From a virus (Duplodnaviria; Caudoviricetes): a stretch of DNA of 58,273 bases. Location: the IMG/VR virus record IMGVR_UViG_3300029309_000040, positions 1 through 58,273 of that record; one strand, 5' to 3'. The notes beneath the pieces are model-generated. The model saw nothing but the letters and a program-made list of their open reading frames with translations. It was not told the origin of the DNA and did no database searches. Within the stretch, counting starts at the first letter, position 1. Each line of letters begins with the position of its first letter. Made by a program: the position numbers and the translations under genes. Positions 1-58,273 of this stretch are shown one piece after another.

Positions 1-104
1 CGATCCTCAACCGCCATGCAAGACGCATCGCAGTGGCCTGTCGGTACGTATCACTTGATTGTGGTGTCTGACAATCGCATGTTCAAGCAAACCATCGTGA
101 AGCT
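1..104. repeat. Terminal direct repeat, left copy (circular assembly overlap)
   Basis: Identical to 58170-58273 except G99 vs T58268 (synonymous GTG/GTT in the wrapping ORF). Confidence 0.95.
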
Positions 105-108
105 ATGA
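1..108 (+). CDS. C-terminal end of the origin-spanning T9SS type A CTD protein starting at 55593
   Basis: Frame from position 1 reads RSSTAMQDASQWPVGTYHLIVVSDNRMFKQTIVKL-TGA(106-108); the stop overlaps the ATG at 105. Confidence 0.85.
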   Translation, partial: RSSTAMQDASQWPVGTYHLIVVSDNRMFKQTIVKL

Positions 109-1139
109 GACTCCTACTGGCTCTACTCCTGTGCATCCCGCTAGCGAGTGGGGCTCAGACACTAAAGAAGGCGTTTCGCTTCTCCACTTTTTACGCTGCT
201 GTCAACGGGAACAACTCCCTGTCTGACTACAATACGTACTCTGTACTTAGTGGTCCACTGCAAACAGATATTGTAGAGACCCCTTTCGACTATTCCCTTA
301 CCCTGGGGATACGAAAGATTGCTAGGTTCAAGTATGAGAACCGAGCCAATGTATTTTACAACGGTGAGGAGCACTCTTACTCTGATGCAGCTACAATCGG
401 TACGGTCAAAGGTTTTGAGTTCCTATTCGAAAGCGACTATCGCAGGCAGCAAGGGGTGCTGTACCTAGACCAGAACCACTTCCTCAGATACGTCGGGGGG
501 AGGTTCGTCGGGAAGGTAGAGTACGTCCAGGATGGTTTTGCTGACGTGAGCTACCTCGAGGCTTCGCAGAGGCTGCGCATCAACTCTAAGGGGAAGCTGT
601 CTTTCAATATAGGGGGGGCACAACGCATATCGGAACCATACGGTTATGATCCGCTCAAGCAGTGGGAGCTGCCTGACGAAAGTTTGCACTACACGCAGCT
701 TGCCTTGAGCGAGGGTTATAGCTATGACTTCGTTACAGGGGAGTACATGAACCCTGACGGGGATGTAGTAGCCAGCAGCTTCGATGTATGGCGAGAAGTT
801 GTCATCCCAAAAGTCCTTGACGATTATGTACAGCGCAAGCGAGGGGAGCTAAACACAGAGTGGAACTACTCTTTAGTAGTAGGGTTTGACTACTACCACT
901 ATACCAAAGACTTCTGGCTGCACTCTTGGGGGAATGTCTTGCCTCGACATTTAGATACGGGGTCAGAGTTTTCTTACTTCCAGCTCAACGGGGGGCAATG
1001 GGTGGATTATAGTGGGGGACTAATCTTCGGATGGAAGTTGAATAGGTCCTTCGGCTGGTTCCTAGAAGGACGATACAATAAGTACTGGAACAGGGAGTGG
1101 CACGACTTCTCGGTTGGGGTCAACTATGTAATATTCTGA
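105..1139 (+). CDS. Putative outer-membrane beta-barrel protein
   Basis: Signal peptide MRLLLALLLCIPLASGA|Q; aromatic-rich alternating beta strands; C-terminus SVGVNYVIF resembles a BAM beta-signal ending in Phe. Confidence 0.7.
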   Translation: MRLLLALLLCIPLASGAQTLKKAFRFSTFYAAVNGNNSLSDYNTYSVLSGPLQTDIVETPFDYSLTLGIRKIARFKYENRANVFYNGEEHSYSDAATIGTVKGFEFLFESDYRRQQGVLYLDQNHFLRYVGGRFVGKVEYVQDGFADVSYLEASQRLRINSKGKLSFNIGGAQRISEPYGYDPLKQWELPDESLHYTQLALSEGYSYDFVTGEYMNPDGDVVASSFDVWREVVIPKVLDDYVQRKRGELNTEWNYSLVVGFDYYHYTKDFWLHSWGNVLPRHLDTGSEFSYFQLNGGQWVDYSGGLIFGWKLNRSFGWFLEGRYNKYWNREWHDFSVGVNYVIF

Positions 1140-1140
1140 T

Positions 1141-1425
1141 ATGGCAAAGGAGATTAACGAGGATATGGGGTTCAACGTCAGCATTAAATCGCTGGCAGGG
1201 ATTGGAGTGGGGATGGCTTCTTTAATCGGGATGTGGTTTACCCTGCAGGCCGATATCGCTGAGGCTAAGATGCTCCCTGAGCCACTCCCCTCGGAGGTTT
1301 CCCGTATGGAGTTTGATATGAAAGACCAACTGATTCGTCAGACGATTATGTCTACTCAAGAGGATGTCGGGGAGATTAAAGAAGACATCAAGCGAATAGA
1401 AGAAAAGATTGATCAACTCAAGTAA
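1141..1425 (+). CDS. Single-pass membrane protein with C-terminal coiled coil
   Basis: Hydrophobic segment LAGIGVGMASLIGMWFTL followed by heptad-like EIKEDIKRIEEKIDQLK. Confidence 0.7.
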   Translation: MAKEINEDMGFNVSIKSLAGIGVGMASLIGMWFTLQADIAEAKMLPEPLPSEVSRMEFDMKDQLIRQTIMSTQEDVGEIKEDIKRIEEKIDQLK

Positions 1426-1433
1426 CATGAATT

Positions 1434-1799
1434 ATGAAAGCAATACTTGCCCTCTTTACAGCATTTGCGTTCTTCTCAGCGGCGGCCTATGTAGCCGAGG
1501 TTGCGGAGGCTGAGGTCTGCAACTCTGGTGTATGCGTCGTGGAGTTTAACGCCTCTTTCAATAAGAGCAACGGGGTGGAGTGGATTGAAAAACTCAACGA
1601 TTGCACTACTTCGCGCATAGATATCGTAGAGAGCCCAGCCCTACAGCAGAAGCATAAAATCGTAGTAGTCCCTACTATTATTATCTTTAACGACGGGGAG
1701 GAAGTAGAAAGATTTCAGGCAAATATTATGATGGCTATAGAAGCCTCAAAGTCTGATGTACAAGAAAGTGTAGATGAAATATTAATGAGCTCTTTTTGA
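1434..1799 (+). CDS. Exported thioredoxin-fold protein lacking CxxC
   Basis: N-terminal signal; VVEFNASFN in place of VVDFWAxWC; VVPTIIIFNDGEEVERF matches the thioredoxin cis-Pro region. Confidence 0.7.
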   Translation: MKAILALFTAFAFFSAAAYVAEVAEAEVCNSGVCVVEFNASFNKSNGVEWIEKLNDCTTSRIDIVESPALQQKHKIVVVPTIIIFNDGEEVERFQANIMMAIEASKSDVQESVDEILMSSF

Positions 1800-23400: not shown

Positions 23401-24899
23401 CAGGGAGGTCTGACATGGTGCAGAAGATGGTGAAACGCGTGCCGCAAACCCTCAAGGCTCTGATGCAAGAAGAGGTGAGAGGCAAGGACTCTGCTCTGTC
23501 TCAGTACTACGCCGAGTTTAAAGAAGACGGTGGAAAGACGGGATGGGCATACGCTAAAAGTCTAGCACAGAGAAAAACAGAAATCGAAAATTCTCTGCGG
23601 GGAGCTGAGTTCAAAGGCAAAGGTTTTCTGAATCTTCTTGAGGGAGTCAACGACGCAGTAGAGAACAGCATCCGTCTAGCTGCATACATCGAAGCTCGTG
23701 AAGCTGGGGTGACGCGAGAGAAGGCAGCTCAACTCGCGAAGAACATCACTGTAAACTTCAACAAATCAGGTACGCTAGGCCCTGCAGCTAACAGCCTGTT
23801 TCTTTTCTTCAACGCAGCGGTGCAAGGTAGTGCCCGCACCGTTCGGAGTCTGAAGTCCCCCAAAGTGCAAAAAGCTGTAGGGCTGATGACTCTCAGTGCG
23901 GCGATGTTGGATATGGCAAATCGAGGCATGTCTGGGGAAGATGAAGATGGAGTTCTCTGGTACGACAAAATCTCCCCGTACAAGAAAGAGAGAAGCATCA
24001 TCATCATGACGGGGACAGGTCCTGACGACTACGTATCGATTCCTCTACCGTATGGGTTTGGAGCATTCTGGAGTGTCGGAACTGCGATGTCTGCTGTAGC
24101 AAACGAAGCCATGTCCGTCGATCAGGCCTTAGGCTTTACTGCTCGCAGTGTCATCACCAACTTCTCTCCAGTGCAACTGAGTGAGGGTGACAACCCTGAT
24201 GTAAACGCCCTTCGTACTATCACCCCTACCGTTCTTACACCTCTTCTCGATCGGGCAACGAATCAAACTTACTATGGTGGGAAAGTATACAGAGAGCAGT
24301 TTCCAGGTGGCACGCCTAAGCCAGAGTCTGAACTCGCGTATCGCGCTCCGCGCCTTGCCATTGAAGCTGCCCGAGCCGTAAATGTCGCTACTGGTGGTAG
24401 CCCCAACGTGCCAGGCAAGATAGATTACAACCCCGACAAGGATTGGTACACCCTTGATTTTGCGATGGGAAGTGCAGGTAAGACTGCCATTCGAACAGGA
24501 CAACTTGCCAAGGATATAGTGACGGGAGCGCCAATCAAAACTAGGAACGTTCCGTTCGCTCGGGTATTTCTCGGGAGCGCACAGGAAGACGCATACTCTT
24601 ATGACATCGATCGCTTCGAAGCGAACCGAGTAGAGGTCGAGCAGCTATTCAATGAGTTCAAGAGCAAGTCAAAGGAAGATCCTGAAGCGGGCAGATACAC
24701 GGGCATCCCAAAGCTCAAAGGGCAGCTACGTAAAGCTGAGAACCTACTGAAGGTTCAGAGAAAGAAGTTGCGCGACGCTCAGGATATCGAAAACTACGCG
24801 GAGCGATCTGAGGTTATTCAAAACATCCGCGAGGCTCAACGTAAGATTATGATGAACTTCAACAAAGAATATAATCGTGTCAGAAAAGAAAAAGATTAA
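20472..24899 (+). CDS. Large internal virion protein with LPD38-like C-terminal domain
   Basis: NPEFVLTNFSRD, ENSIRLAAY, ITVNFNKSG, FLFFNAAVQG and IPLPYGFG motifs typical of large polyvalent/ejection proteins. Confidence 0.7.
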   Translation: MEDEDFQQLLLDYAATANLPKNNGDWDVIDAKFPELEKYDRDVLHSYVLTYNQANQPDNMEDLGVINAKFPELFPVKKKDEAQVAPSVSVADGEETSAVSPSISDAPSIDSGTPEPLTAKTPDEVPFQEVQFLTGDFGNAINSVPFLGDIIDDSARAIAQGKRQGNVVNDALSVMSRGAAASDEDVLALIAEVQRMEELGPSEEFNNFQKVATEEGGVFGFLKALATEPQAVPEVFLQSMSALVNPASAAVALPIVSGGGLLGGPGGAAASLPYAMAAAGTTLETALTFAELLQEEVKEKGLEFDLDGVNAVLDDTEALNRIRRKSAVRGGVIGTVDALTGRVSTKVAQKALLTGSKAKAVVKTGAVEAVGGGVGEATGSAAIGKPIEVVEVGLEMAGGTPGAGVSLASAALRPGKYKVNGETVDRAFVQDILKNATPEELANLEISVENDKDLKAEMQEQQLRSQLAENLPRNFSEEANAELLDLEYERAVLTGKRDSRSKKKRIDEIDARIDEIFESEKMRKAQEAGMGELRETGLIVGGEKGFEVTRTVTPVEQEVATMEGGEVAGQETDIGAPLPPPEPSGKAFEAPKKTRYEATRDLLIRKFQDKFIDVFRLQDAVTAARGDLSQDQDFRMAEELFYGRAADKIEKLEGKLEDITSGMKEAGLTMDQFDEYLYARHAKERNSKIFESQKAEADKLRSKENKTSKEKNRLKQLEERMRNMDGSGMSDAEADAILQSYEKEFGDMIGPDQKSSIQNLHDLVMEITAENRALAVEAGLISQEEADRQFAEQPNYVPLQGFAVDESGAQTGSSYVSGGQGFNVRGKEGKRAKGRQSKAANPLAQLVTNSATLRIRAERNMALQKLHNLVAENPNPDVWTVLGPGQKPDPTRSVGVKINGEEHFIQFENSDHVKSLKEMGVEDIGMLGRFFRGANNWLRRSFTTINPEFVLTNFSRDIQSAVLNAVAETDIPGGQISGRSDMVQKMVKRVPQTLKALMQEEVRGKDSALSQYYAEFKEDGGKTGWAYAKSLAQRKTEIENSLRGAEFKGKGFLNLLEGVNDAVENSIRLAAYIEAREAGVTREKAAQLAKNITVNFNKSGTLGPAANSLFLFFNAAVQGSARTVRSLKSPKVQKAVGLMTLSAAMLDMANRGMSGEDEDGVLWYDKISPYKKERSIIIMTGTGPDDYVSIPLPYGFGAFWSVGTAMSAVANEAMSVDQALGFTARSVITNFSPVQLSEGDNPDVNALRTITPTVLTPLLDRATNQTYYGGKVYREQFPGGTPKPESELAYRAPRLAIEAARAVNVATGGSPNVPGKIDYNPDKDWYTLDFAMGSAGKTAIRTGQLAKDIVTGAPIKTRNVPFARVFLGSAQEDAYSYDIDRFEANRVEVEQLFNEFKSKSKEDPEAGRYTGIPKLKGQLRKAENLLKVQRKKLRDAQDIENYAERSEVIQNIREAQRKIMMNFNKEYNRVRKEKD

Positions 24900-25326
24900 G
24901 GATACAGCCCTCGGGGCGTGGCTGAGTACGAAGGTGCCAGCCCTAGCAGATAAAGTCGGGGACCTCCTCCCAGAGAGCGGGGTGCTGGGCGTAGTCAAGA
25001 ACCTCGTAGACAAAGAGCCAGGTGTATCTACTGAAGACAAGCTAGAGTTTGAGAAGCTCAAGCAGCAGCAAGAGGTAGAGGCTCAGAAGCAAGTGACTGA
25101 GCGCTGGAAAGCAGACATGGGGAGCGATGTAAAGCTCGCCAAGATGATCCGTCCCGTCACCCTTATCGCACTGATGACGATGTTTATGGTGACGATGGTG
25201 GCAGATAGCATGGACAACTGGGCCTTCAATGTAAAGGACAGCTATGTCGATCTACTGCAGATACTGATGCTTACGGCCTTTGGTGCGTACTTCGCTGGAA
25301 GAACTATCGAGAAGGCTAAGAAGTGA
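24877..25326 (+). CDS. Holin (3TM, GTA-holin-like)
   Basis: VTERWKADMGSD..LAKMIRP, hydrophobic segments, GAYFAGRTIEK C-terminus. Confidence 0.75.
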   Translation: MSEKKKIKDTALGAWLSTKVPALADKVGDLLPESGVLGVVKNLVDKEPGVSTEDKLEFEKLKQQQEVEAQKQVTERWKADMGSDVKLAKMIRPVTLIALMTMFMVTMVADSMDNWAFNVKDSYVDLLQILMLTAFGAYFAGRTIEKAKK

Positions 25327-38560: not shown

Positions 38561-38640
38561 AGAGCAAAAAGCGTAGAGCCAAAGGCATGCTCCCGAAGAA
38601 GCGGCGCATGTACCAGAACGGTGGTGGTGTCGGAGACCCA
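38557..38640 (+). repeat. ~84-nt leader repeated at 39234-39317
   Basis: Both encode MKxKKRRxKGMLPKKRRMYQNGGGVGxP. Confidence 0.9.
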
Positions 38641-39234
38641 AAGAAAAATGGGATGCCAGATTGGTACCCTGCTTTCTTGCATGCTCTGTCAGGGGTGGAA
38701 TCCTCGTATGGTAAGAATATGATGAACCCCACCACTACAGCAACGGGGTTGTACCAGCAGATGTATGACGAAATCAAGGACATGCCAGAGATGAAAGGGG
38801 TGTCTAGAGCTGATTTCGCTAAAGACCTAAAGCTGCAGAGACAGATTCAAGACATGCGCATGCGTGGGGAGATACCTGGGGTGCCAGGGTTGCTGCGTAA
38901 CGCAAGAGACATCAAGTCTAAAAACCTCTCCCCAGACGAAGTAGCGGCTATGAGCCACTTTATAGGTAGGGATGGGTTGATGCAGCAGCTCAAAAGCGGG
39001 TATGATATCCCAGGGAACAACGCTTCTTTCGATGAGTACTTGTCTCGGTACCGAAAGGCAAGAGCTACATACAAACCCCCAGTAGCAGAATCAGACACTA
39101 TACCTATGCTACCCGTCTCCGCCCCACGGGAGGTGACTTCAGATTTGAAAAATGCATTTAAAATCTTGCGGGAATCCCCGCGAATCTCACCTCAGTTGCA
39201 AAACGCTATTGGTATACTAAGGGATAGTCAGTAA
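38557..39234 (+). CDS. Lytic transglycosylase / lysozyme-like virion protein
   Basis: FLHALSGVESS...ATGLYQ (catalytic ES and GLxQ motifs). Confidence 0.7.
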   Translation: MKSKKRRAKGMLPKKRRMYQNGGGVGDPKKNGMPDWYPAFLHALSGVESSYGKNMMNPTTTATGLYQQMYDEIKDMPEMKGVSRADFAKDLKLQRQIQDMRMRGEIPGVPGLLRNARDIKSKNLSPDEVAAMSHFIGRDGLMQQLKSGYDIPGNNASFDEYLSRYRKARATYKPPVAESDTIPMLPVSAPREVTSDLKNAFKILRESPRISPQLQNAIGILRDSQ

Positions 39235-42200: not shown

Positions 42201-42278
42201 CCCGCTCGCCTCGGAGAAGGTGTAGGGGAGATTCGTGCCTATAATAGCGGTGGTAAGTTCAGAATCTTAAAGAAGTAA
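39234..42278 (+). CDS. Polyvalent protein: two PT-TG-like modules, an ART-like domain and an ELQ-type domain
   Basis: FPVLGDAIDLVEA..TGKDLSG and LPVIGEGIDAAEL..TGEDFYG; MYRG...GPGIYGTS...ADDYG; YISELQADP. Confidence 0.6.
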   Translation: MKNKKRRPKGMLPKKRRMYQNGGGVGNPPQGTITPQEVLARLEQLRNPDRLRTGDAPFRTIRQEKNRQASEGTDEAMFEFIRMFPVLGDAIDLVEAGKVNLTGKDLSGRETDKSLYNTFAAAGLVIPNVLERPLKFLLRKGARSADDIARVIRENRGAEELAPLKELQQKAEAFESRLIKGARPTRDALQSSGINFNTYTRPEQGAKNWMLENDPDLLMKFTPEAYDQGMFDRRMQEFGDQYLTMYRGVDADNPEQAARYMTEVQKGGNLGGQNAGPGIYGTSEVRVADDYGGYIGTVRTAPDVAQSFDPSDRIISDLVRLEEEGAMYLPIEERQLLSDLGAFPGMETRSDRVRVVRSLPASQQKILEITSPGEQFVPKYKSDFAGSNVSLLPGDKRTRGLQTAYERLFPLVEKYKNGGKVDGDPPQGTITPQDALMRALQPDNQFRLTGGDAPFRTIKQEQDRMTAETVDDSMFETARFLPVIGEGIDAAELAKVAATGEDFYGEEQDPAMFAGMTAAGYLIPNILEKPLKSAWRAVKKFPAKLPKREFRELPSEQREAVLQNLTQAHNEVYDMSPRLSDLDRDVFDLSGGSYNVRQLPSLMSGSKLENAVGKDGLIQVSQIENLINSKDISAAEREALQDALFKSRVQQGEALGLESGAPLPDKIDYLNFKRAGMGNMNRPFRVEESNQYADYGLGNLGYSFDAIPSLEKQGLEARTNLIRTTDPELQSTEYGHFGEDVIGHYRTFERPDEEGVLYISELQADPLQARGPAGEKRVGLNIGEGGPTTKQASLIKNQDQFLISHILENEAKGADKLRFPTGETTSKIQGYGYQTRRISRAKSDVELYENISKEARGNELVDKTFKEHPMFKGKSEGEIMYMMEGVASVRTKVSSLGETDQRIFNEYEQGFRELGGDDNATRKAVFDWYDATKKLRSSREHLSRINASEQATQGIMKGYDRLPKALKKHGLDATKVTDDVGNTWWEVDIPARLGEGVGEIRAYNSGGKFRILKK

Positions 42279-42939: not shown

Positions 42940-43428
42940 ATGAACTTAAAAGAACCAAGCTTGCAGCTAGAGGTACTACGCTTCAGCAGCGAGAAAGACA
43001 GCACCAACGGCCTCCTGTTCGATATCACAGGGGACCATCGTGAGTTTTTATGTTACACCTTAGAAGATGAGCTCAGAGAACAAAAAATCAAAGGGGAGAC
43101 TAGAATCCCTGAAGGAGAGTATGACATCACGCTACGCACGTTTGGTGGCTTTCATCATCGATATCAAAAACGATTTGCTGATATTCATCTGGGAATGCTG
43201 TGGGTACGTGACGTCGCTGAGTTCTCGGATATTCTCATTCATTGTGGAAATACTGACGAAGACACGTCGGGCTGTCTCCTCGTGGGTGACTCGCAAGAAA
43301 ACAACCAAGTAAAGAAGAACGGGTTTATAGGGCACTCCACCCGTGCATACTTCCGACTCTACCCCTTGGTGGCCAAACAGCTCCGTGACGGGAATCGCGT
43401 TACCATCAAGTACACCGACTTGAGTTAA
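42940..43428 (+). CDS. DUF5675-like peptidoglycan enzyme (endolysin candidate)
   Basis: CYTLED, ETRIPEGEY, ILIHCGNT..DTSGCLLVG. Confidence 0.75.
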   Translation: MNLKEPSLQLEVLRFSSEKDSTNGLLFDITGDHREFLCYTLEDELREQKIKGETRIPEGEYDITLRTFGGFHHRYQKRFADIHLGMLWVRDVAEFSDILIHCGNTDEDTSGCLLVGDSQENNQVKKNGFIGHSTRAYFRLYPLVAKQLRDGNRVTIKYTDLS

Positions 43429-43847: not shown

Positions 43848-44593
43848 GAATAACAGAGAAAAGTTCTTGATGGAAGTTCAGAAGCTTCATGTCTTACTTG
43901 AGGCCATCACTCAAAAGTACGACATGGAGCATGAAGTGGTAAACATCATGCTGACGGGAATGCTCGATAGCGATGATATGGGGGAGCCAGTGCTCAAAGC
44001 TGTCTACAGTATGAACGTAGACAACGAAGAGCTGTTGATGGAGGCTCTAGATTTCTTGCACTTCTCTTACAGCGCTCCGATAGATTTGGATGAGGAGTTC
44101 TATTCTGAGACTTGGTACCTTCCTATTCTCGATGAATTAAACGATATTGACCCATCTCTGAACTGATGGGAGGGTTGATACGAAAGATTGTGATTGGGAG
44201 AGACCCGAAGGATGCCATGGCTTACTACGTTGGCATGCGTGCTGGTAGCGGTAAGGTAGCGGCCATAGTGCTTGACGAAGCCCACTTGCATCGCTATGGG
44301 AAGATGCGATATTTAGTCTATCTAGATATAGACGATGCACAGGTGCTATGGAAGGCCATCGACGATATGCCCTGTATACTTGAATACGATTTAAATTTTT
44401 AATTATGGAAGAAAACCTATACACTGCTGGGGGGGAGTTTAGGAAGCTAAACGGAGAGGAATACATAGGGCCATATCATGTACATCCAGAGTTCGGTGCT
44501 ATGATAGGACCGTACCACCTCCCCACCCCTCACGAAAGGTTGATTCCGATTACCAATCCTAGCTCGGATATGGTGAGAGCAAGCGGATACTAA
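43846..44593 (+). CDS. Three small hypothetical ORFs (43846-44166, 44166-44402, 44405-44593)
   Basis: Co-oriented, abutting ORFs. Confidence 0.55.
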
Positions 44594-45168
44594 TGAATAT
44601 GCTGTATTACTTCGTTGTGGAACTCCCAAAAAAGTTCCGTGACGAAATCGACTTCGCCGATACCACGCTGAAGATTGAGACCAAGTTCAACGAGTTTGAG
44701 CACAGAGTAAACGAAGGGGAGGTGAAGCACATCCCCTTGAAGTTTGATACCCCAGTAAAACCTGGGGACACGTTATATTTCCACCACAACGTAGTTATAA
44801 ACGGGGGGATGCCGTTTGCAGACTACAAAGACCACTATGTGGTAAGCTTCGACCCGAAGGTAGCTGTGAACAGCCACGCCTATGCCTACAAGCCCCAAGG
44901 AACAGACGAGCTCATCCCGCTAGAGGGGTGGAGCATATTACAGGAATCGTTTGAAAAGGAAGTAGAAGAGGCTATGTTCGAAGTCGTAGAGTTCAAAAAG
45001 AAGCCTCGAACTACGGGGGTAGTGGCCGCTATGAGCGATCAGATTGCAGAGCTCGGGTTGTCTGTGGGGGATACCGTCGGGTTCAAAGAGAACAGGGACT
45101 ACGAGTTCAAAGCCAACGATAAGGTTTACTTCCGTACCCGAGTAGAGGACTTGCTCTATGCCATCTAA
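44593..45168 (+). CDS. Tandem GroES-like co-chaperonin
   Basis: GEVKHIP..VKPGDTLYF and TGVVAAM..LSVGDTVGF, two GroES-like repeats. Confidence 0.65.
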   Translation: MNMLYYFVVELPKKFRDEIDFADTTLKIETKFNEFEHRVNEGEVKHIPLKFDTPVKPGDTLYFHHNVVINGGMPFADYKDHYVVSFDPKVAVNSHAYAYKPQGTDELIPLEGWSILQESFEKEVEEAMFEVVEFKKKPRTTGVVAAMSDQIAELGLSVGDTVGFKENRDYEFKANDKVYFRTRVEDLLYAI

Positions 45169-45453: not shown

Positions 45454-46785
45454 ATGCGGATATGTAAAGTATTCCTAATACTACTTTGGGTTACCTCTCC
45501 ACTGTACTCGCAGTGTGACTTAGAGATACTCGATGTAGACCTAATCGAGGGTAGCGTAACGATTGCATTCAACAACACGGAGAACTGCGGGGGGACGGCA
45601 GGTCCATACGGGGTATCTGAAATCCAGTTTGGGTTCCAAGCTTTAGATAGCGATTGCAACGCAATGAATCAGGGGTGGGACTTTCCCTCTGGATTCTCTA
45701 TATCTGATGATTCTAGTCACCCAGGCTGGTTGTACTCGGCTACGACTATGGAGTCCATTAATAACTGGACCAACCTTTATGATGAGCTGATAGATCCCCC
45801 ATACTATACTGGAGATACAGTAGAGTTTCCGTTGTACAACCCCTATCAAAACGATTGCGTAGATGGTCCTTTCGCAGCTCAACTGTACTGTAACCTTGAA
45901 GGGGGGATAGACTATTGGTTGAGCTTAGACCTCAGCGTACAAGTCGTGATTTGGCAGATAAGTTATGGTCCCACTATGTATGCCGAAGACGGGGGTTGGG
46001 CAGAGGTAGGCATCAACGGGGATGGCACTTCTACGGGCAATGGAGTATATGACGACGAAAACTGGGTGGACAACTGGGTGGTAGTGGGCCCCTGCGGAGA
46101 CCCCCTCCCAGAGGTTATCGTAGACACCGTTTACATTGAGCTTCCCCCAGATACTGTCATCGTGGTAGAGTACGATACAATACCAATACCTATCAATTGG
46201 TACTTCTACGACACGACCTATATATACGTCTCTGACACGCTCTATCTAACTGAGTATCTTACAGATACAATCTACGAGACTGAGTATGTATATGATACAA
46301 CCTGGGTGGATAACTATATATACGACACAACCTATGTGTATATACTTGACACCATACTATCCACAGACTACGTTTATGACACCACCTATGTATACCTGCT
46401 GGACACCCTACACGAGTACATAGTGCAAGAGCTGTGGTTGGATTGCGATACAGGTCTCCCGTGTGACGACCAGCCAGGGGTTGACGATTGCGAAGAGATG
46501 GTGGTGTTTGTACCTAACGTATTTACCCCAAACAACGATGGGGTAAACGATAGTTTCTATGCCCAGCAATCTGACCCTAGCTGTTGGAATGATTGGACTA
46601 TGACCATATACAACAGGTGGGGTAGGGTAGTTTTTCAAACCGACGACCCAGAATACGGTTGGGACGGGAGCTACAACGGCGGGGGTCACTACGTTCCTGA
46701 CGGCGTGTATGCTTGGGTGATTAAGGCCAGCTCGTACTCTGGCAGGGCCATAGGTATAGAGGGGACAGTACAGATTTTTAGATGA
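45454..46785 (+). CDS. Secreted protein with T9SS type B (gliding-motility-associated) C-terminal sorting domain
   Basis: Signal ..SPLYS|Q; VFVPNVFTPNNDGVNDSF..IYNRWG..VF..WDG..PDGVY..GTVQIFR. Confidence 0.9.
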   Translation: MRICKVFLILLWVTSPLYSQCDLEILDVDLIEGSVTIAFNNTENCGGTAGPYGVSEIQFGFQALDSDCNAMNQGWDFPSGFSISDDSSHPGWLYSATTMESINNWTNLYDELIDPPYYTGDTVEFPLYNPYQNDCVDGPFAAQLYCNLEGGIDYWLSLDLSVQVVIWQISYGPTMYAEDGGWAEVGINGDGTSTGNGVYDDENWVDNWVVVGPCGDPLPEVIVDTVYIELPPDTVIVVEYDTIPIPINWYFYDTTYIYVSDTLYLTEYLTDTIYETEYVYDTTWVDNYIYDTTYVYILDTILSTDYVYDTTYVYLLDTLHEYIVQELWLDCDTGLPCDDQPGVDDCEEMVVFVPNVFTPNNDGVNDSFYAQQSDPSCWNDWTMTIYNRWGRVVFQTDDPEYGWDGSYNGGGHYVPDGVYAWVIKASSYSGRAIGIEGTVQIFR

Positions 46786-51806: not shown

Positions 51807-53294
51807 ATGGCTATTTCCACTAATAATACTACCAATACGATTGTCGTAACCTCTACTGGTCCGAAGGGAGAGGCTGGGGGAAGCAATATCGTAATCAAAG
51901 ACGACGGTGGAGATATCACCTCTTCGGCTTCGTCTATCGACTTTGTCGGTACAGGCGTTACAGCTTCGGCTTCGGGGGACAACGTTACGGTCACTATCAC
52001 TGGTGGTGGCGGCGGAGGCGGTGGCGGTCAGTTCATCACTGTTATTGATGAGAGCACCACCCTTACCTCTTCGGTATCTCAGTTTACGTTTACTGGGGAT
52101 GGGGTTACGGTTACCGAGCCTGTTTCGGATCAGGTTACCGTTACTATCCCTGGTGGGGGTGGGTCTTTTACTGCTGGGGACGGCCTCGACCTTACTTCTA
52201 CGGAGTTCAGCGCAGACCTGAAAGCCAACGGGGGACTCGTTATAGAGTCTACCGAGATGGCTGTTGACTTGGGGGCTTCTTCTATCACGGGTACGCTCGG
52301 GGTAGCTGACGGCGGTACTGGGGCTACGAGCCTCGCGGCCAACTCTGTGTTGACTGGAAACGGTACTAGCGCGGTGGTAGCTGAGGCCAACCTCACTTAC
52401 GACGGACAGCTCTTAGATGTCAAGAACGACGGTACGGACCAGTCGGAGATACGTTTGTATTGCGAGTCTAGCAACGCCCACTACGTCGGTATCGCAGGGT
52501 CTCCTCACGCTGGTGCGGCTAGTCATACTTTGCAACTGCCTTTGCAGCCAGGTACGGCGGGGCAAGTACTGAAAGTAGATAGCGTAAACGGGAATACTCA
52601 GCAGCTCGCCTTCACATCTAATATCGCAGGTAACGCAGCGGGGTTGTCTTCTACTCTGGCTGTCGGTAGCGGCGGTACTGGGGCCACCACCCTAGGTGAC
52701 GGCCACGTCTTGTTGGGGAATGGAACCTCTGCGGTAAGCTCTGTCGACGTAACTGCCAAGGGTAGCATCTTGGTTGGTGACGGGAGCGGCGACCCTAGCG
52801 CCTTGGCTGTAGGCACTAACAACTACGTGTTGACAGCCGACAGCAGCGAGTCTACTGGTCTGAAGTGGGCTGCGGCCTCTGGGGGGACGGAGATTGAGTT
52901 CGCTAGCCAGAGCAGCGCCGTCAACGCTGCTGGTGAGGCCGAGGGTACGATCGTAAAGTTCGGGGATGACTCTACTGTAGCTGGTAAGGTTTACACTTTC
53001 TATTCTGGCACATGGACCTTGGTCGATGCAGATGGTGAGGATACCACAAGGGGGTTGTTAGGTATGGCCCTTGGGGGTAACTCTAGTACTAACGGGATGT
53101 TGGTTTATGGGGTGGGGTATGTAGCTGTAGACCCAGGGGATGCAGGTAAGCCTTTGTATATTTCTACTACTGCAGGAGATTTGACTGAGACGCAGCCTAC
53201 TGACGCCTCTGACTTCGTCAGGGTGGTTGGGTATTGCTTGGCTGACCAGAAGATTTTCTTCTCACCATCACAAGACTACATCGACCTTGCCTAA
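51807..53294 (+). CDS. Tail fibre protein
   Basis: Gly/Thr-rich; GTLGVADGGTGAT, KGSILVGDG and GLKW fibre repeats. Confidence 0.75.
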   Translation: MAISTNNTTNTIVVTSTGPKGEAGGSNIVIKDDGGDITSSASSIDFVGTGVTASASGDNVTVTITGGGGGGGGGQFITVIDESTTLTSSVSQFTFTGDGVTVTEPVSDQVTVTIPGGGGSFTAGDGLDLTSTEFSADLKANGGLVIESTEMAVDLGASSITGTLGVADGGTGATSLAANSVLTGNGTSAVVAEANLTYDGQLLDVKNDGTDQSEIRLYCESSNAHYVGIAGSPHAGAASHTLQLPLQPGTAGQVLKVDSVNGNTQQLAFTSNIAGNAAGLSSTLAVGSGGTGATTLGDGHVLLGNGTSAVSSVDVTAKGSILVGDGSGDPSALAVGTNNYVLTADSSESTGLKWAAASGGTEIEFASQSSAVNAAGEAEGTIVKFGDDSTVAGKVYTFYSGTWTLVDADGEDTTRGLLGMALGGNSSTNGMLVYGVGYVAVDPGDAGKPLYISTTAGDLTETQPTDASDFVRVVGYCLADQKIFFSPSQDYIDLA

Positions 53295-55074
53295 TATCAG
53301 TGACATAAACGGGGTAGCTGTAGCTAGCCTCGGGGATTTCAACGGGGTAGCTAAAGCCAGCATCACCGATATCAACGGGGTGACTATCGTTGTCTCTGGT
53401 ACGAATCTATTGCTTGACACGTACACAGGGGCGGCAGCAGCCTACTCCGTGCGCAAGCTTGACAAAGACTACAGCGGCAGCTGCATGCGAATCCGCAGGG
53501 ACAGCGACGACAGCGAGACAGACATTGGTTTTGATAGTTCTGGAGACCTGGACACTTCAGCGATTGCCACGCATTGCGGAAGCGCTAACGGCTACCTAGT
53601 TACTTGGTATGACCAAGCAAACGTAGGTGGCACTGCGGCAAACGCTACGCAAAGTTTAGGCTCACGTCAACCGCAGATATACAACGGCAGTGGGGTAATT
53701 ACTGAAAACGGCAAGCCAGCCGTTAAATCAGGAGCGAACATGGGGCTAGAAGCTCAGGTTGCAGGAGAGCTGAAAGGCTTTAGCGTTAGCTTTTTAAGCA
53801 CTGCAAAAAGCGTTTTGTTTCACAGGTCACAAGTGGTAAGGACTGGCAATGGGTGGTTTTTAGCAGCAGAGCAAACAAGCTCAACCGCCTTAATTGATAC
53901 AGCCGAGTACAGCAATGTGGCAATACGTAAAAACGGATCCGCATACAGCTTAACAAGCAAGACTAGACAGGATTTATATAACGACTTTTCAAGTCAGCAC
54001 TTATTGCATTTTAATGCTGATATGAGTACAGGTTCAATCACTCAGTATTTTATCGGTTACAATTGGGCTGGAACTAATTGGACATATTCAATGTTCAGCA
54101 CTCAAGAGCTAATATTGTACCCTAGCACTAGCAGCCACAGTATAAGCGCCATAGAGGGGAACGTCAACGCCTACTACCAAATCGGCAACTTCGGCACGCC
54201 CACCTCTGGGCTTCTTTCTGAGAGCTATGGCACAGGAGCAGCGGCCGCCTATTCAGTACGTCAGCTTGCCAATACCGCTAGCAAGTGCATGCGCATTGTA
54301 GTAGACAGTGCAGCTACAGTGGGGACGCTCGATAGCAGTGACCCAGAGTATGATATCGGATTTGATACTAACGGGGACTTGGATACTGCTGCAATTGTAA
54401 GCTACTGCAACAACCCTAGTGGGACTAACTACAATGCTTATGTGACTAAATGGTACGATCAGAGCGGTAATGGAAACGACGCTTCTCAGACTAGTTATAC
54501 TGCTATGCCGCAGATATACAACGGCTCTGCTGTAATTACTGAGAACGGGAAGCCAGCGTTGGACTTTAATGGGACATCAGATTATTTAAAAACCACCACG
54601 TATGCTGTTGAATTATCACAGAATAATGCAAGCGTTTTTACAGTTCACAATTCGGCTGTAGCGGCTTCAAACACTCAATATTTGTTGGCTGAGGCAGATT
54701 CGGCCTCCCCCTACAGCTCCAACTTCATATATGGCAACTTCGATCCCCCAGGTGGCGGCACAACCAATATTATTCTTTGGATGAATGGCACTCATTTCGG
54801 CACCTCTGTATCAGGTCAATGTTTGAGCGGTTTCGACTATAACGGCACCAATTTTCAAGCGCATTTAAATGGCAGCTCTTCTGGGAGTTCGGCTACAGCA
54901 ACGGTAAACACAGAGGCAAACACTTCTACTTACATTGCGAGTCAAGCCCAAGATTCTAGTTCGGTTTACTTTGACGGAAAGGTACAGGAGATTATTACGT
55001 ACAAGACCAACAAATCCAGCAACCGCAGCGCCATAGAAGGAAACATCAACGGGTACTTCTCGATTTATACTTAA
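53287..55074 (+). CDS. Receptor-binding protein with two tandem ConA/LamG-like domains
   Basis: Duplicated GAAAAYSVRxL..DIGFD..GDLDT..WYDQ..PQIYNGS..ITENGKPA; probable TTG start at 53287. Confidence 0.7.
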   Translation: MPNISDINGVAVASLGDFNGVAKASITDINGVTIVVSGTNLLLDTYTGAAAAYSVRKLDKDYSGSCMRIRRDSDDSETDIGFDSSGDLDTSAIATHCGSANGYLVTWYDQANVGGTAANATQSLGSRQPQIYNGSGVITENGKPAVKSGANMGLEAQVAGELKGFSVSFLSTAKSVLFHRSQVVRTGNGWFLAAEQTSSTALIDTAEYSNVAIRKNGSAYSLTSKTRQDLYNDFSSQHLLHFNADMSTGSITQYFIGYNWAGTNWTYSMFSTQELILYPSTSSHSISAIEGNVNAYYQIGNFGTPTSGLLSESYGTGAAAAYSVRQLANTASKCMRIVVDSAATVGTLDSSDPEYDIGFDTNGDLDTAAIVSYCNNPSGTNYNAYVTKWYDQSGNGNDASQTSYTAMPQIYNGSAVITENGKPALDFNGTSDYLKTTTYAVELSQNNASVFTVHNSAVAASNTQYLLAEADSASPYSSNFIYGNFDPPGGGTTNIILWMNGTHFGTSVSGQCLSGFDYNGTNFQAHLNGSSSGSSATATVNTEANTSTYIASQAQDSSSVYFDGKVQEIITYKTNKSSNRSAIEGNINGYFSIYT

Positions 55075-55143: not shown

Positions 55144-55554
55144 ATGGCAACGATTTACCTCCCAGTAGAAGCAACAGATACGCTCACAAGCCAAGAGAGA
55201 GCCACAGCTATAAATGCAGAGATATGGCATATGCGCAAACCAGCGCAATACATCTCTGCTCAAGATGTAACTAGGTACTACTTCAGTACCGTAACTCACC
55301 CTAGCACCTCTCAAGTGGCTGTAGTAGGGGGTAGCGATGACGCCCTGCGAGTGCACCCAGAGGCAGATATCACAGCCTTGCTAGCCCTACTCCCAGAAAT
55401 AACAGAGAGCGAAAGGACGTCTCTGACAAACCTCATCGAAGCCAATAAAGGGGGGACGGTAACGTTTAGCGATATCATCCCTACTACCTCCGTGCAGCTC
55501 ACAGAGGCAGAGGCCGACGCCGCAGGGTGGACGCAGACAGATGAGATAGAGTAA
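55144..55554 (+). CDS. Hypothetical tail-associated protein
   Basis: TAAATTTG box at 55132-55139, 4 nt before the ATG. Confidence 0.65.
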   Translation: MATIYLPVEATDTLTSQERATAINAEIWHMRKPAQYISAQDVTRYYFSTVTHPSTSQVAVVGGSDDALRVHPEADITALLALLPEITESERTSLTNLIEANKGGTVTFSDIIPTTSVQLTEAEADAAGWTQTDEIE

Positions 55555-55592
55555 CGTAAAATACTGACTGCTATAGTATTTATATTTGTACT

Positions 55593-58273
55593 ATGGCAAA
55601 CGATCGTGTGCGGAAACGAGTAGCTCGGCTATTAAAAAAGCACGGGCTCAAAGGCGTGAATAAGCCGAAGCGAACACCGCAGCACCCCAAAAAGTCACAT
55701 ATAGTATTAGCTAAAGAAGGGGATAAAGTAAAGCTGATACGCTACGGCGAGCAAGGGGCTAGCACAGCAGGGAAACCGAAAGCAGGGGAGAGCGCACGGA
55801 TGAAGGCCAAGCGCAAAAGCTTCAAGGCCCGACACCGACGCAACATAGCCAAGGGGAAGATGAGTGCTGCATACTGGGCCAATAAAACTAAATGGTTCTT
55901 GCTCCTCCCCATTTTGTCTCTGCAGGCGCAAAGCTGGGTAAACGTAAACTTCGTTTCTGATCAGTACGCTGACGAAAGCTCATGGGAGATACTGTCTGAC
56001 ACCAACGTTGTCGCTTCGGGGGTGGCAGAAGAAGTTCTAGTAACCCTACCCCCTGGACAGTATACGTTCGTAGCATACGATGAGTTTGGTGACGGGATAT
56101 GCTGCCAATACGGGGAGGGGTTCTTTACCCTAACTAACGGATGTGGGCTAGACATAGGGGTGTATGACTTCGCCTCTGCTCAAATGGAAATCCCGTTTAA
56201 CCTGCTCCCTTGCCCCCCACCAGTTGTTGGGTGCATGGATGAAGAGGCCAGCAATTACGACCCCTTGGCCGTTATTGATGACTACTGTCTTTACAGCGTA
56301 AGGTTTCGGCTAGACTTAAACGGGCCACACCCAGAAGGTATCGTAACACCAGAGGTGAACACAAGCTGGTATGGGTGGTGCGGTAGCTGCAATCAAATGC
56401 AAGACCTAGACGGGGACGGGATATGGGAGGTTACCATTGACTTCCCGCTAGGCGATTACCTATGGAAGTTTTCAGCAGATGATTGGGGGTATCAAGAAAT
56501 GCCAGCGGGAGTTCTAAACTCCCCGTGTTTTCTGTTTGATGAATGGGGGTTCGTAAACAGACCCTTAAACGTAGAGGGATCGCTGACCCTCCCTACCTTC
56601 TGTTGGGAGAGCTGCTTCCCTTGCGGTTCTATAGTTGGGTGTACTGACTCCACCGCCACAAACTACAACCCTTGGGCCAACTTCAATCAGGGGTGCAACG
56701 TAGTCGAGTCAGCTAATTGCGACATCACGCAAACAGAGGTTTCTGTAACTGTCATCCCCGACAACTACCCAGCAGAAACCAGTTGGGGCTTGGTGGACCT
56801 GACTTTAGGCGGGGTTATAGCCTCGATTAATACAGGGGACCTGTCTGGAGCCCCTGTGGGGATACCCCTCGTAACAAACACCTGCGTATCTATAGGGAGT
56901 GAAATACAAATCCTTGTGTTGGATTCGTATGGTGACGGAATGAATGGGTCTCAGTGGGGTGGCGAAGACGGGACGGTGATAGTAGAGGCTTGTGGTGAAG
57001 AAATCTGGTCACTCCCATCAGAAAACATAAACTTCGGTTACAGTTTAGAAGCTTCTTTCCCTGCCCCTGTATGCCAAACCATAGAGGATTTGGTGGGGTG
57101 TGGGGACCCAGATTACCTAGAGTACAACCCCGACGCCACGGTGTTTCTTGATTTGCTCTGCGAAACTCCAGTCGTATACGGATGTATAGACACGGCGTAT
57201 TATAACTACAGCCCAGAGGCTAACGTAGAGCAGCAGCCAGACTCTTGTTTTTACACGCTAACCCTTACTGACGGCGTTGGTGATGGATGGTTTGGTAGTT
57301 GGATTGGAGTAAAGCAAGGGGAGTGGATTTCCCCGCAGTACCAAATGGGGCCAGCAGATGGGGTGGAAGAAAGCTTTGAGCTATACCTCCCTTCTGACGA
57401 AGAGGTAGAGCTGTTCTTCTTCTCCACGCCGCAGTCTTTGTTTACTGTGGCTCAGTGCGGATTTATACTTGAGGGCCCAACGGGGGACACGCTCATTGAC
57501 GTGCCTCAGTGGAATATCATCCCCTTCCCATACACATACACAGCGACGACATACTGCGGCAACCTTTGCGAAGAGTATGTCTATGGGTGTATGGATACGA
57601 CGGCACAAAACTATGTCGCACTAGCCAACACCGCTGACAGCAGTTGCTACTATGCCGCTGGCTGCATGCAGGCTGGATATCTAGAGTACTACACTCAAGG
57701 GTATGAAGCAGATTATGATGATGGCTCTTGTTTAACGTTGGCTGTGTTTGGGTGCACAGAACCGACTGCGCTGAACTTTGATGAGGGGGCCAACGTGGAC
57801 AACGGTAGCTGCATCCCCGTGGTGGTGGGGTGTATGGATGTATCAGCTTACAACTACAGCGTCGAGGCTAATACCGAAGGGGAGTGCCTGTATGACGCAG
57901 GCTGCGCTACAGGTGCAGGCGTCCCATACTGGCTTAACGATTCTTGCTACGGGTGGGTGATTGAGGTGGACCCCTACTGCTGTGAAGCGGAGTGGGACGG
58001 GGGGTGTATCGGACTGTACGATTACTGTCAGCAGGGCTGGCCTACGGGTGTCACTGAATTAGCAGAGGAGGTTACTATCCGCCCGACGGTTGTAGAGCGT
58101 CATTTCTATGTGGACTCCCCATACCCGTTTGTGTTGACTGTCTTCGATGCTACAGGGAGGGAGGTGCTACGATCCTCAACCGCCATGCAAGACGCATCGC
58201 AGTGGCCTGTCGGTACGTATCACTTGATTGTGGTGTCTGACAATCGCATGTTCAAGCAAACCATCGTTAAGCT
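55593..58273 (+). CDS. 894-aa origin-spanning protein: basic N-domain, signal peptide, Cys-rich repeats, CBM48-like domain, T9SS type A CTD
   Basis: Translated by hand, open from ATG 55593 through the origin to TGA 106-108; eight GCx(D/E/Q) repeats; DLDGDGIWEVTIDFPLGDYLWKF; VFDATGREV..WPVGTYHLIV..QTIVKL. Confidence 0.85.
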   Translation, partial: MANDRVRKRVARLLKKHGLKGVNKPKRTPQHPKKSHIVLAKEGDKVKLIRYGEQGASTAGKPKAGESARMKAKRKSFKARHRRNIAKGKMSAAYWANKTKWFLLLPILSLQAQSWVNVNFVSDQYADESSWEILSDTNVVASGVAEEVLVTLPPGQYTFVAYDEFGDGICCQYGEGFFTLTNGCGLDIGVYDFASAQMEIPFNLLPCPPPVVGCMDEEASNYDPLAVIDDYCLYSVRFRLDLNGPHPEGIVTPEVNTSWYGWCGSCNQMQDLDGDGIWEVTIDFPLGDYLWKFSADDWGYQEMPAGVLNSPCFLFDEWGFVNRPLNVEGSLTLPTFCWESCFPCGSIVGCTDSTATNYNPWANFNQGCNVVESANCDITQTEVSVTVIPDNYPAETSWGLVDLTLGGVIASINTGDLSGAPVGIPLVTNTCVSIGSEIQILVLDSYGDGMNGSQWGGEDGTVIVEACGEEIWSLPSENINFGYSLEASFPAPVCQTIEDLVGCGDPDYLEYNPDATVFLDLLCETPVVYGCIDTAYYNYSPEANVEQQPDSCFYTLTLTDGVGDGWFGSWIGVKQGEWISPQYQMGPADGVEESFELYLPSDEEVELFFFSTPQSLFTVAQCGFILEGPTGDTLIDVPQWNIIPFPYTYTATTYCGNLCEEYVYGCMDTTAQNYVALANTADSSCYYAAGCMQAGYLEYYTQGYEADYDDGSCLTLAVFGCTEPTALNFDEGANVDNGSCIPVVVGCMDVSAYNYSVEANTEGECLYDAGCATGAGVPYWLNDSCYGWVIEVDPYCCEAEWDGGCIGLYDYCQQGWPTGVTELAEEVTIRPTVVERHFYVDSPYPFVLTVFDATGREVLRSSTAMQDASQWPVGTYHLIVVSDNRMFKQTIVK
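58170..58273. repeat. Terminal direct repeat, right copy
   Basis: Matches 1-104 with one mismatch. Confidence 0.95.

Follow-up and report, generated by a model that had tools for sequence, protein, structure and literature searches.

The T9SS (type IX secretion system) shapes surface, motility and polymer degradation in Bacteroidota, which are major marine consumers of algal carbon, and it governs phage susceptibility in cultured flavobacteria. Cargo proteins with a type B C-terminal domain (CTD) are known to occur with a PorP/SprF-like barrel, for example in the SprB-SprF pair. Phages also encode outer-membrane proteins of their own: morons such as Lom and Bor of phage lambda and Llp of phage T5 change the cell surface or block receptors, and their genes are often near lysis or tail genes. 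Here we describe the gene for a putative T9SS substrate, hereafter termed the cargo, in IMG/VR virus record IMGVR_UViG_3300029309_000040, which was analyzed over its whole length of 58,273 nucleotides (nt) and is called the window. The gene belongs to a phage cassette that also encodes an outer-membrane beta-barrel, a small protein with one hydrophobic segment (TMcc) and a secreted thioredoxin (Trx)-fold protein.

The closest described system is the cryoconite "Cryophage," whose main account reports an endoglucanase, a GH39 protein and a PA14 protein with type A sorting domains and proposes that they hijack the host T9SS (PMC7468147). As in that phage, the type A sorting domain of the cargo is phage-encoded, cargos vary between phage variants and use of the host T9SS is proposed. 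The Cryophage cargos that this account describes are enzymes or a PA14 protein, whereas the present cargo is non-enzymatic as far as detected and its cassette occurs in hundreds of marine viral contigs. A cassette of barrel, TMcc and Trx genes, or an N-terminal fusion like the one described below, is not found in the Cryophage account, although its supplements might list neighboring genes. An earlier note on the window, made from the sequence, had put forward a phage-borne system of host-surface remodeling that hijacks the T9SS as its best candidate for an undescribed system; because of the Cryophage precedent, phage-encoded T9SS cargos are a known kind. In the literature searched, supplements aside, we found no description of a cassette with an orphan viral barrel, its marine spread or its fusion to phrog_7595.

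Like the SprB-SprF type, the cassette places a T9SS cargo gene beside a gene for an outer-membrane barrel of ~300-350 amino acids (aa), and another gene of the window, at 45454, specifies a type B CTD protein. Unlike that type, the barrel carries no PorP_SprF signal, the adjoining cargo is of type A, and distant partners lack a CTD. The cargo resembles bacterial T9SS type A cargos in the core of a signal peptide, a body of several domains and, at the C-terminus, a seven-strand sandwich that matches solved CTDs, and its domain types are common in a flavobacterial metagenome-assembled genome (MAG). It differs from them in being phage-encoded, with a core family nearly absent from bacterial species genomes, in its borderline scores with general hidden Markov models (HMMs), in its internal signal peptide behind a fused basic domain, and in the nearly constant pairing of its gene with a virus-only barrel gene. 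Morons such as Lom, Bor and Llp are likewise phage genes for outer-membrane or surface proteins. Unlike them, the cassette comprises four genes, with a larger barrel and T9SS-tagged partners, and no sequence or family relation exists.

The cargo gene spans the contig ends

The cargo frame is open from the ATG at 55593 to 58271, which gives 893 aa with a 3' end open at the contig edge. Its parts, and the terminal repeat through which it is completed, are as follows.

55593..58273, plus strand, last codon and stop continuing at 105-108: fused cargo open reading frame (ORF), 894 aa (frame reading, uninterrupted relatives)
1..104, no strand assigned: terminal direct repeat, equal to 58170-58273 at 99%; second copy of the last 34 codons of the cargo ORF
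55593..55895, plus strand: phrog_7595 small basic phage protein domain, residues 1-101 (profile match, stand-alone homologues)
55860..55934, plus strand: internal ATG (Met90), hydrophobic core and AQ-rich cleavage-type motif (alignment with unfused relatives)
55932..56204, plus strand: GDG beta domain 1, residues 114-204 (motif and AlphaFold2 (AF2) model)
56283..56615, plus strand: predicted beta sandwich of CBM20/48 fold (starch-binding type), residues 231-341 (fold match)
56730..57062, plus strand: GDG beta domain 2, residues 380-490 (motif and AF2 model)
57243..57548, plus strand: GDG beta domain 3, residues 551-652 (motif and AF2 model)
57576..58031, plus strand: tandem GC repeats 5-8 and helical Cys-rich module, residues 662-813 (motif and AF2 model)
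58059..58273, ending at base 105, plus strand: predicted divergent T9SS type A CTD, residues 823-894 (HMMs, profile, fold)

Because bases 1-104 repeat 58170-58273 at 99% identity (one mismatch), the contig ends overlap by 104 nt. Read through this overlap, the last codon consists of 58272-58273 and base 105 (cta, Leu), and the stop tga at 106-108 overlaps the ATG at 105 that starts the next ORF (ATGA). Uninterrupted contigs from other samples (L005-L008 and L010) carry the same gene pair with the same overlap, and a 4,024-nt contig from another sample (X4 record 9) spans 55400-58273 with 31 substitutions and no gaps. The terminal repeat, the closing of the frame at 108 and the uninterrupted contigs thus bear out the proposal that the ORF spans the origin. 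The start that had been proposed at 55860 does not hold, as this is an internal ATG (Met90) in a frame open from 55593.

The remainder of the ~58-kb window is that of a tailed phage genome. When window proteins were compared with PHROGs, the large terminase matched phrog_6681 (E 2.4e-206) and the portal phrog_6547 (E 2.4e-196); the window further encodes a primase/helicase and structural proteins of the virion. GC content is uniform along the window (0.47-0.53), and IMG/VR rates the record 94% complete. Because of this gene content, the even GC content and the IMG/VR record itself, we assign the cargo to the phage on genomic context. The nearest terminase relatives (101 records, closest match 48.8% identity) name flavobacterial-type phages in 86 cases: Flavobacterium accounts for 68 of these, Cellulophaga for 15, Tenacibaculum for 2 and Maribacter for 1. 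The host is therefore probably a marine flavobacterium. One member of the barrel cluster is labeled as a Bacteroidetes MAG, and the sample habitat of cassette contigs is marine plankton.

An assembly chimera with host DNA, or a sequencing error that created the fusion, could be suspected because the terminal repeat contains one mismatch and IMG/VR labels the record linear. The fusion is, however, intact in seven viral contigs from different samples (69-94% identity) and is also carried by protein clusters P0001-P0008 (75-96% identity). Gapless contigs from two other samples cross the junction (X4 record 9 and X5 record 17), GC content is even, and the ratio of nonsynonymous to synonymous divergence (dN/dS, or omega) is far under 1. 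With the fusion conserved and the junction bridged, we reject an artefact of either kind as scarcely credible.

A divergent type A CTD

Several lines of evidence agree on a type A CTD at the cargo C-terminus, as the earlier note had proposed, albeit a divergent one. TIGR04183 scores 17.8 bits in a whole-protein scan and 23.1 bits in a six-frame local scan (cut-off 23), and PF18962 gives no match to the cargo at E <= 1. When the CTDs of 53 PF18962-positive relatives were made into an HMM, this matched over model positions 1-85 with 47.6 bits (E 6.6e-12), which is in the lowest class among viral cargos, most of which score 65-112 with this family model. The family profile A2 finds solved T9SS CTDs by sequence (8glk_D, E 7.8e-7; 8glj_D, E 1e-3) and also matches the solved structures 7pzj_A and 5jvk_A.

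The modeled fold points the same way. The CTDs of RemZ, NucA, RemA, FspA and RgpB are matched with a root-mean-square deviation (rmsd) of 1.9-2.2 over 64-68 residues, at Z scores of 8.9 for 8gl8_D, 8.7 for 8glk_D, 8.6 for 8gl6_D, 8.5 for 8glj_D and 8.3 for RgpB 5ag9_B. The best match is a C-terminal domain of 9x1i_B (Z 10.9), and Foldseek aligns the cargo CTD to 8glk_D with a template-modeling (TM) score of 0.75. Close relatives of the cargo pass the general models: the unfused L009 scores 31.9 bits with TIGR04183, over the cut-off of 23, and P0009 scores 40.4 bits with PF18962. Profile and model together argue for a type A CTD, of divergent sequence, at the end of the cargo.

The fused cargo is under purifying selection, and the dN/dS values proposed as a check are far below 1. 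Omega is 0.06-0.08 for the body and 0.10-0.18 for the CTD, which is well conserved within the fused clade. In the N-terminal domain, dN is 0.12-0.21 and dS is saturated, with an omega of 0.07 in the single measurable pair. The comparison of the window with the unfused L009 gives a dN of 0.089 for the similar bodies but 0.92 for the CTDs, which are unrelated in sequence; the difference indicates a swap of the CTD between these cargos. The signal peptides of the two proteins also differ, which indicates that domains have been swapped at either end of the gene.

The conserved core of the cargo was confirmed for 106 of 175 pattern candidates in IMG/VR versus 1 of 60 in 185,579 species genomes, and bacterial genomes hold only the separate module types. 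A FastTree phylogeny of the core retained 102 rows with at least 80% of residues 230-660 aligned, after 84 of 190 rows below this coverage and 4 duplicates were left out. Its 13 known-viral rows require at least two changes and do not form one clade. Because 87 rows are of unknown origin, the viral specificity of the core rests on the pattern scans.

Fusion to a small phage protein

Residues 11-101 of the cargo match phrog_7595 (E 5.2e-40, profile positions 6-96 of 96), a fusion that was overlooked in the earlier reading of the N-terminus. Residues 1-101 contain 32 K+R versus 5 D+E. Stand-alone phrog_7595 proteins are present in 44 phage records (phages of Roseobacter, Synechococcus and Vibrio among them), 27 of which show 60-80% identity; gp66 of Roseobacter phage CRP-1 and gp046 of Synechococcus phage S-CBS2 are 75-76% identical to residues 1-101. 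These stand-alone homologues terminate exactly at the KW of residues 100-101.

Immediately afterward, at residues 102-114, nine hydrophobic residues form a core that precedes an AQ-rich cleavage-type motif; both align with the signal peptide at the N-terminus of unfused relatives (P0009 and L009). The core is N-terminal only if Met90 is the start, and the full-length protein contains no 19-residue window resembling a transmembrane segment. Initiation at Met90 would yield an ordinary signal peptide. All 39 Cys residues lie after residue 101 and the body is strongly acidic (114 D+E versus 12 K+R), features that fit an exported protein.

The fusion is retained in 7 of 79 viral loci found with the cargo as seed. 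A stand-alone phrog_7595 gene lies just after the cassette in 12 of 80 loci found with the barrel as seed, and because of this arrangement the simplest history would be that the cassette landed directly behind a phrog_7595 gene, whose stop codon was then lost.

In four marine runs, contig depth over the phrog_7595 part (55688-55879) is up to ~10-fold higher. Loose contig ends over the same interval run into other sequence, some with a stop right after KW, and the stand-alone gene is carried by many other phages of those waters. Four small Lys-rich ORFs follow the cassette directly (1796-2875) and are kept in relatives; where phrog_7595 is a separate gene, in other phages, it is found among these small post-cassette ORFs.

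Domains of the cargo body

The motifs listed in the earlier note are present: eight GCx(D/E/Q) repeats lie at residues 213, 349, 502, 530, 665, 690, 720 and 746, and three D.(Y/F/V)GDG motifs at residues 163, 444 and 560. In an AF2 model of the cargo (mean predicted local distance difference test (pLDDT) 72.3; domain cores 80-90), residues 114-204, 231-341, 380-490 and 551-652 each fold as a beta sandwich, residues 779-813 as a small helical Cys module and residues 828-892 as a seven-strand sandwich.

The sandwich of residues 231-341 resembles carbohydrate-binding modules (CBMs) of the CBM20/CBM48 type. Its top two matches, with 89-92 residues aligned at rmsd 2.4-2.5, are STBD1 (8x8k_A; Z 10.5, rmsd 2.4, 89 aligned) and GDE5 (2z0b_A; Z 10.4); glucoamylase (Z 9.1) and the CBMs of AMPK-beta, SNF1 and SEX4 (Z 7.4-8.0) match more weakly. 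The best Pfam match to this stretch in the window, X25_BaPul_like, is below threshold (13.2 bits, E 0.096; cut-off 27). AMPK1_CBM and CBM_48 matches are found in relatives of the cargo, and the homologous stretch of relative P0048 passes AMPK1_CBM with 35.8 bits (cut-off 26.8). Thus, the suggestion of a CBM48-like segment stands at the level of the fold and of relatives, but not in the window's own Pfam score. The domain shares the fold of the modules in STBD1, GDE5, glucoamylase and AMPK beta, and it differs from them in being below Pfam cut-offs, in an extra Cys pair and in the lack of a significant sequence match in the PDB, where phmmer returned only chance matches (E >= 0.47).

With this fold, and with AMPK1_CBM and CBM_48 matches in relatives, the cargo could be displayed or released by the T9SS to bind alpha-glucan or algal or bacterial polysaccharide and so feed the metabolism of the infected cell. 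The marine plankton habitat would suit such nutrient capture, as would the phage-encoded glycoside hydrolase T9SS cargos that the main account of Bellas et al. (2020) describes (PMC7468147). We consider it quite improbable. Searches with Pfam, NCBIfam, Foldseek and fold comparison found no catalytic domain in the cargo, glycan binding is predicted only from the fold, the gene lies in a late (structural) strand block, and the obligatory barrel, TMcc and Trx genes would be left unexplained.

A Foldseek search with the whole cargo model returns mostly generic multi-Ig adhesins and pilins. Such matches would also be expected of a fiber, decoration or adhesin of the virion that re-uses host-type Ig-like and CBM domains, in which the CTD-like region would be a mere beta sandwich. 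The cargo gene follows a virion structural gene (53227-55074; phrog_10356), and the phrog_7595 domain also occurs within phrog_220, "minor head protein and DNA pilot" (E 8.6e-7). A virion role is nonetheless very improbable: unfused relatives have signal peptides, the neighboring products are secreted or membrane proteins, and a sequence profile matches the CTD to true T9SS CTDs. Moreover, 39 Cys residues in knot-like repeats point to folding in an oxidizing periplasm. The modules of the cargo have 81 matches in one flavobacterial MAG (~30-55% identity), which suggests that they come from a host-type domain pool.

The virion structural gene just mentioned contains an internal duplication (50-nt copies at 53671 and 54508, 88% identity) and a 33-nt tandem at 53297-53362.

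A cassette with an orphan barrel

The gene that overlaps the cargo stop begins a run of three further cassette genes.

105..1139, plus strand: predicted virus-specific orphan outer-membrane beta-barrel, 344 aa, with signal peptide and C-terminal Phe (AF2 model, family scans)
1141..1425, plus strand: TMcc, 94 aa, with a single hydrophobic, Gly-rich segment and, at the C-terminus, a charged helical part (sequence)
1434..1799, plus strand: putative secreted thioredoxin-fold protein, 121 aa, without CxxC (sub-threshold HMMs)

The AF2 model of the barrel (pLDDT 72.8; predicted TM score 0.69) matches only outer-membrane barrels, mostly 12-stranded, in fold searches. The EstA translocator is best (Z 11.3), followed by KdgM (Z 10.8) and by LpxR, Tsx and NanC (~10). 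Pfam and NCBIfam have no family for the window barrel, and Pfam has none for 33 diverse family members. PorP/SprF (PF11751) was considered as an identity and rejected, as was a likeness to PorV: entries that contain PorV are low in the ranking (8gl6_F, E 6.7e-3) and match no better than generic barrels do.

At 90% identity the barrel family falls into 3,576 clusters; at 50% identity, 307 representatives remain. Relatives were confirmed for 437 of 444 pattern matches in IMG/VR, the top three Atlas clusters are 100% viral, and Tara names of some cluster members indicate the <0.22 um fraction. In the 185,579 species genomes, 3 of 105 candidates were confirmed, and because their contigs belong to MAGs of unrelated taxa we take these for mis-binned phage DNA. 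The barrel has no match in 50,697 deposited phage records, and a viral scan with its most distant representative, P0314, gave none. All source names examined for cassette members are "hypothetical protein" or blank. The cassette is also seen on MAG contigs labeled Sphingobacteriales, Parvibaculum and Rickettsiales (L024, L025, L026 and L133; barrel 58-60%, cargo ~40-52% identity), which are probably phage contigs mis-binned into bacterial MAGs.

The Trx-fold protein reaches 22.8 bits with PF00085 (cut-off 23.5) and 22.9 with TIGR01068 (cut-off 96.8). Only one Cys is conserved in at least 90% of its 63 family members, and the CxxC is absent from the window protein. TMcc has no Cys and ~55 periplasmic residues.

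Gene order was compared in the 80 barrel-seeded and the 79 cargo-seeded viral loci. In the former, 60 loci have a cargo gene within three genes upstream of the barrel, 9 have it within five genes downstream and 1 has it elsewhere; every one of the 10 loci that lack a cargo is truncated. The family CTD HMM matches 69 of these 70 cargos, and TMcc and Trx-fold genes are present in 66 and 69 of the 80 loci, respectively. A barrel gene is present in 74 of the cargo-seeded loci, with the cargo at most two genes upstream in 71, and the remaining 5 stop right after the cargo. The proposed link between the cargo and the genes at 105-1799 therefore extends well beyond the window. Because only two orders occur (cargo-barrel-TMcc-Trx and TMcc-Trx-cargo-barrel), the cassette consists of two tight gene pairs, cargo-barrel and TMcc-Trx. 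Across loci the cargo is far more variable (31-56% identity, 650-1,240 aa) than the barrel (53-67%). In the explanation that we favor, the cassette is a conserved and movable phage unit whose first gene, the cargo, varies.

The CTD and the barrel co-vary (Spearman rho 0.43 over 2,500 sampled pairs from 110 non-redundant loci), and so, equally, do the pre-CTD region and the barrel (rho 0.43; partial correlations 0.32 and 0.32). A specific co-variation of CTD and barrel was rejected, as linkage alone explains these values. A complex prediction for barrel residues 19-344 with cargo CTD residues 815-893 scored 0.00 against a mark of 0.32, which speaks neither for nor against binding.

Relation to lysis genes

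The cassette lies in a strand block that runs from the terminase through head and tail genes to a holin. Two further genes of the window are relevant here.

24877..25326, plus strand: holin, given for context (phrog_3427, E 5.4e-23; GTA_holin_3TM 23.7 bits, just under cut-off)
42940..43428, plus strand: DUF5675 protein, candidate endolysin, given for context (88 bits)

Because the cassette often adjoins a holin or lysin gene, a role in lysis or egress competes with one at the cell surface. The barrel and the inner-membrane TMcc might act like a spanin pair, with the cargo and the Trx-fold protein as accessories. Two-component spanins such as lambda Rz/Rz1 likewise combine an inner-membrane helical protein with an outer-membrane protein, often beside a holin or lysin gene. 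A holin gene is within two genes of the cassette in 18 of the 79 cargo-seeded loci, a DUF5675 gene in 10 and both in 5; in several of these 5 loci the cassette lies between the two, and in some relatives the holin directly precedes the cassette or DUF5675 flanks it. All four cassette products are envelope proteins, the barrel is far better conserved than the cargo, as would be expected of a core function, and no spanin was recognized among the window proteins scanned. A 2026 preprint calls DUF5675 a C82-like peptidase lysin (10.64898/2026.04.11.717860).

In the window itself, by contrast, the holin and DUF5675 genes are 18 kb apart and the cassette is far from both. The tight pairs are cargo-barrel and TMcc-Trx, not TMcc-barrel, and TMcc, without Cys, offers only the ~55 periplasmic residues noted above. 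Outer-membrane spanins are known as small lipoproteins, not barrels, and morons such as lambda bor also tend to adjoin lysis genes. The outer-membrane protein here is a 344-aa barrel without a lipobox, the genes are neither nested nor always adjacent, and the cassette adds a secreted cargo and a Trx-fold protein to anything resembling Rz/Rz1. Neither TMcc nor the barrel matches a PHROG lysis family, and a CTD-tagged protein with a glycan-binding-type domain has no obvious place in lysis. On balance, we judge a role in lysis or egress unlikely, although it is the main rival to the explanation favored below.

A type B CTD protein and a distant barrel subfamily

The earlier note also tied the cargo to the gene at 45454.

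45454..46785, plus strand: secreted acidic repeat protein, 443 aa, with T9SS type B CTD (CHU_C, TIGR04131)

This protein scores 66.7 and 71.2 bits with CHU_C and 45.6 bits with TIGR04131 (cut-off 35). Its relatives lie within two genes of the cassette in 9 of the 79 cargo-seeded loci, and the three tested all have true CHU_C domains. In 96 viral contigs the barrel is of a distant subfamily (31-35% identity). Here a 220-310-aa relative of the 45454 body lies downstream of the barrel, at a distance of up to three genes, in 63 of 80 loci. The tie is thus upheld, with relatives of 45454 in or beside the cassette. The partners of the barrel are not always T9SS-tagged, however, as no CTD was detectable in the three distant-subfamily partners tested. 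Near the distant subfamily, a holin gene is found in 14 of 80 loci and DUF5675 in 10.

In the distant subfamily (L215-L294, for example L221:6238-7170), the secreted neighbor carries a Cys-rich motif at its N-terminus, which matches LDL-receptor class A below threshold (20.9 bits versus 24.1); long acidic D/T/E/Y repeats and a short C-terminal tail are also present, and a T9SS CTD is absent.

Proposed function

The explanation that we favor, with confidence slightly above even, is that the cargo is a disulfide-rich, acidic phage protein, exported by Sec and then by the host T9SS, that acts at the surface of the infected cell with the barrel as its partner. The protein would resemble beads on a string: three GDG domains, one domain of CBM20/48 fold, eight Cys-knot linkers of ~25 residues, a helical Cys module and the CTD. 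Its signal peptide would take it across the inner membrane, most simply if translation starts at Met90, and its disulfides would form in the periplasm. The host T9SS would then recognize the CTD and place the cargo on or outside the outer membrane, where the phage barrel is its likely partner and its glycan-binding-type domains may act at the surface of the infected cell. Because the cargo gene lies in the block of terminase, head, tail and holin genes, it presumably acts late in infection. We infer each of these steps, from Sec export and disulfide formation to CTD-driven T9SS export and partnership with the barrel, from sequence and model. The biological role is the weakest step: the cargo may mask or change the surface so that further phages do not adsorb, or it may bind polysaccharide.

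Several points weigh against this explanation. The general CTD models are borderline on the cargo, and the N-terminal stretch of the CTD, which we take to correspond to the PNP motif, is degenerate. The signal peptide is internal, behind 101 basic residues, with a core of only 9 residues, and the use of Met90 is presumed. Glycan binding by residues 231-341 is predicted from the fold. The barrel is not a recognizable T9SS part and shows no likeness to PorP/SprF when A1 is compared with 19 PorP_SprF proteins by hhalign (probability 12%). Since the distant-subfamily partners lack a detectable CTD (0 of 3), the barrel need not work with the T9SS. To these are added the holin and DUF5675 genes near the cassette in part of the loci, a host deduced from terminase relatives and the flavobacterial domain pool, and the Cryophage precedent for the general idea. 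Neither the barrel nor the cargo body is found in GenBank phages, so that no cultured phage carries cassette genes.

A broader reading sets the cargo in a larger device. The barrel, TMcc, the Trx-fold protein and the secreted acidic partners, whether their CTD is of type A, of type B or absent, may together form a virus-built envelope apparatus of marine Bacteroidota phages without cellular counterpart, either a new kind of device for outer-membrane breaching or egress that replaces spanins or one that, late in infection, occupies or reprograms the T9SS and surface of the host. On this reading, the phrog_7595 fusion would show one frame supplying both a cytoplasmic or virion protein and an exported protein. 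We regard such an apparatus as possible, if doubtful.

The cassette is abundant (437 IMG/VR contigs) and virus-specific, and it pairs T9SS-tagged proteins with an orphan barrel. Because the cargo almost always adjoins a virus-only barrel in related phages, many phages may alter the envelope of the infected cell in a way that has not been studied. If the cargo and its partners remodel or breach the envelope, they would be a missing piece of marine flavobacterial phage-host control, and the barrel would represent a new family of outer-membrane barrels. Cassette genes could also mark uncultured viral contigs as linked to T9SS-bearing hosts.

Additional features of the phage genome

A GroES-like co-chaperonin of the phage is encoded at 44593-45168 (phrog_13932, E 8.8e-32; Cpn10 24.9 bits). 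Two successive ORFs (38557-39234 and 39234-42278) share the same basic N-terminus because their 5' ends carry an 82-nt direct repeat (38552-38633 and 39229-39310; 89% identity). A second repeat of 137 nt (72% identity) is found at 39309-39445 and 40500-40636.

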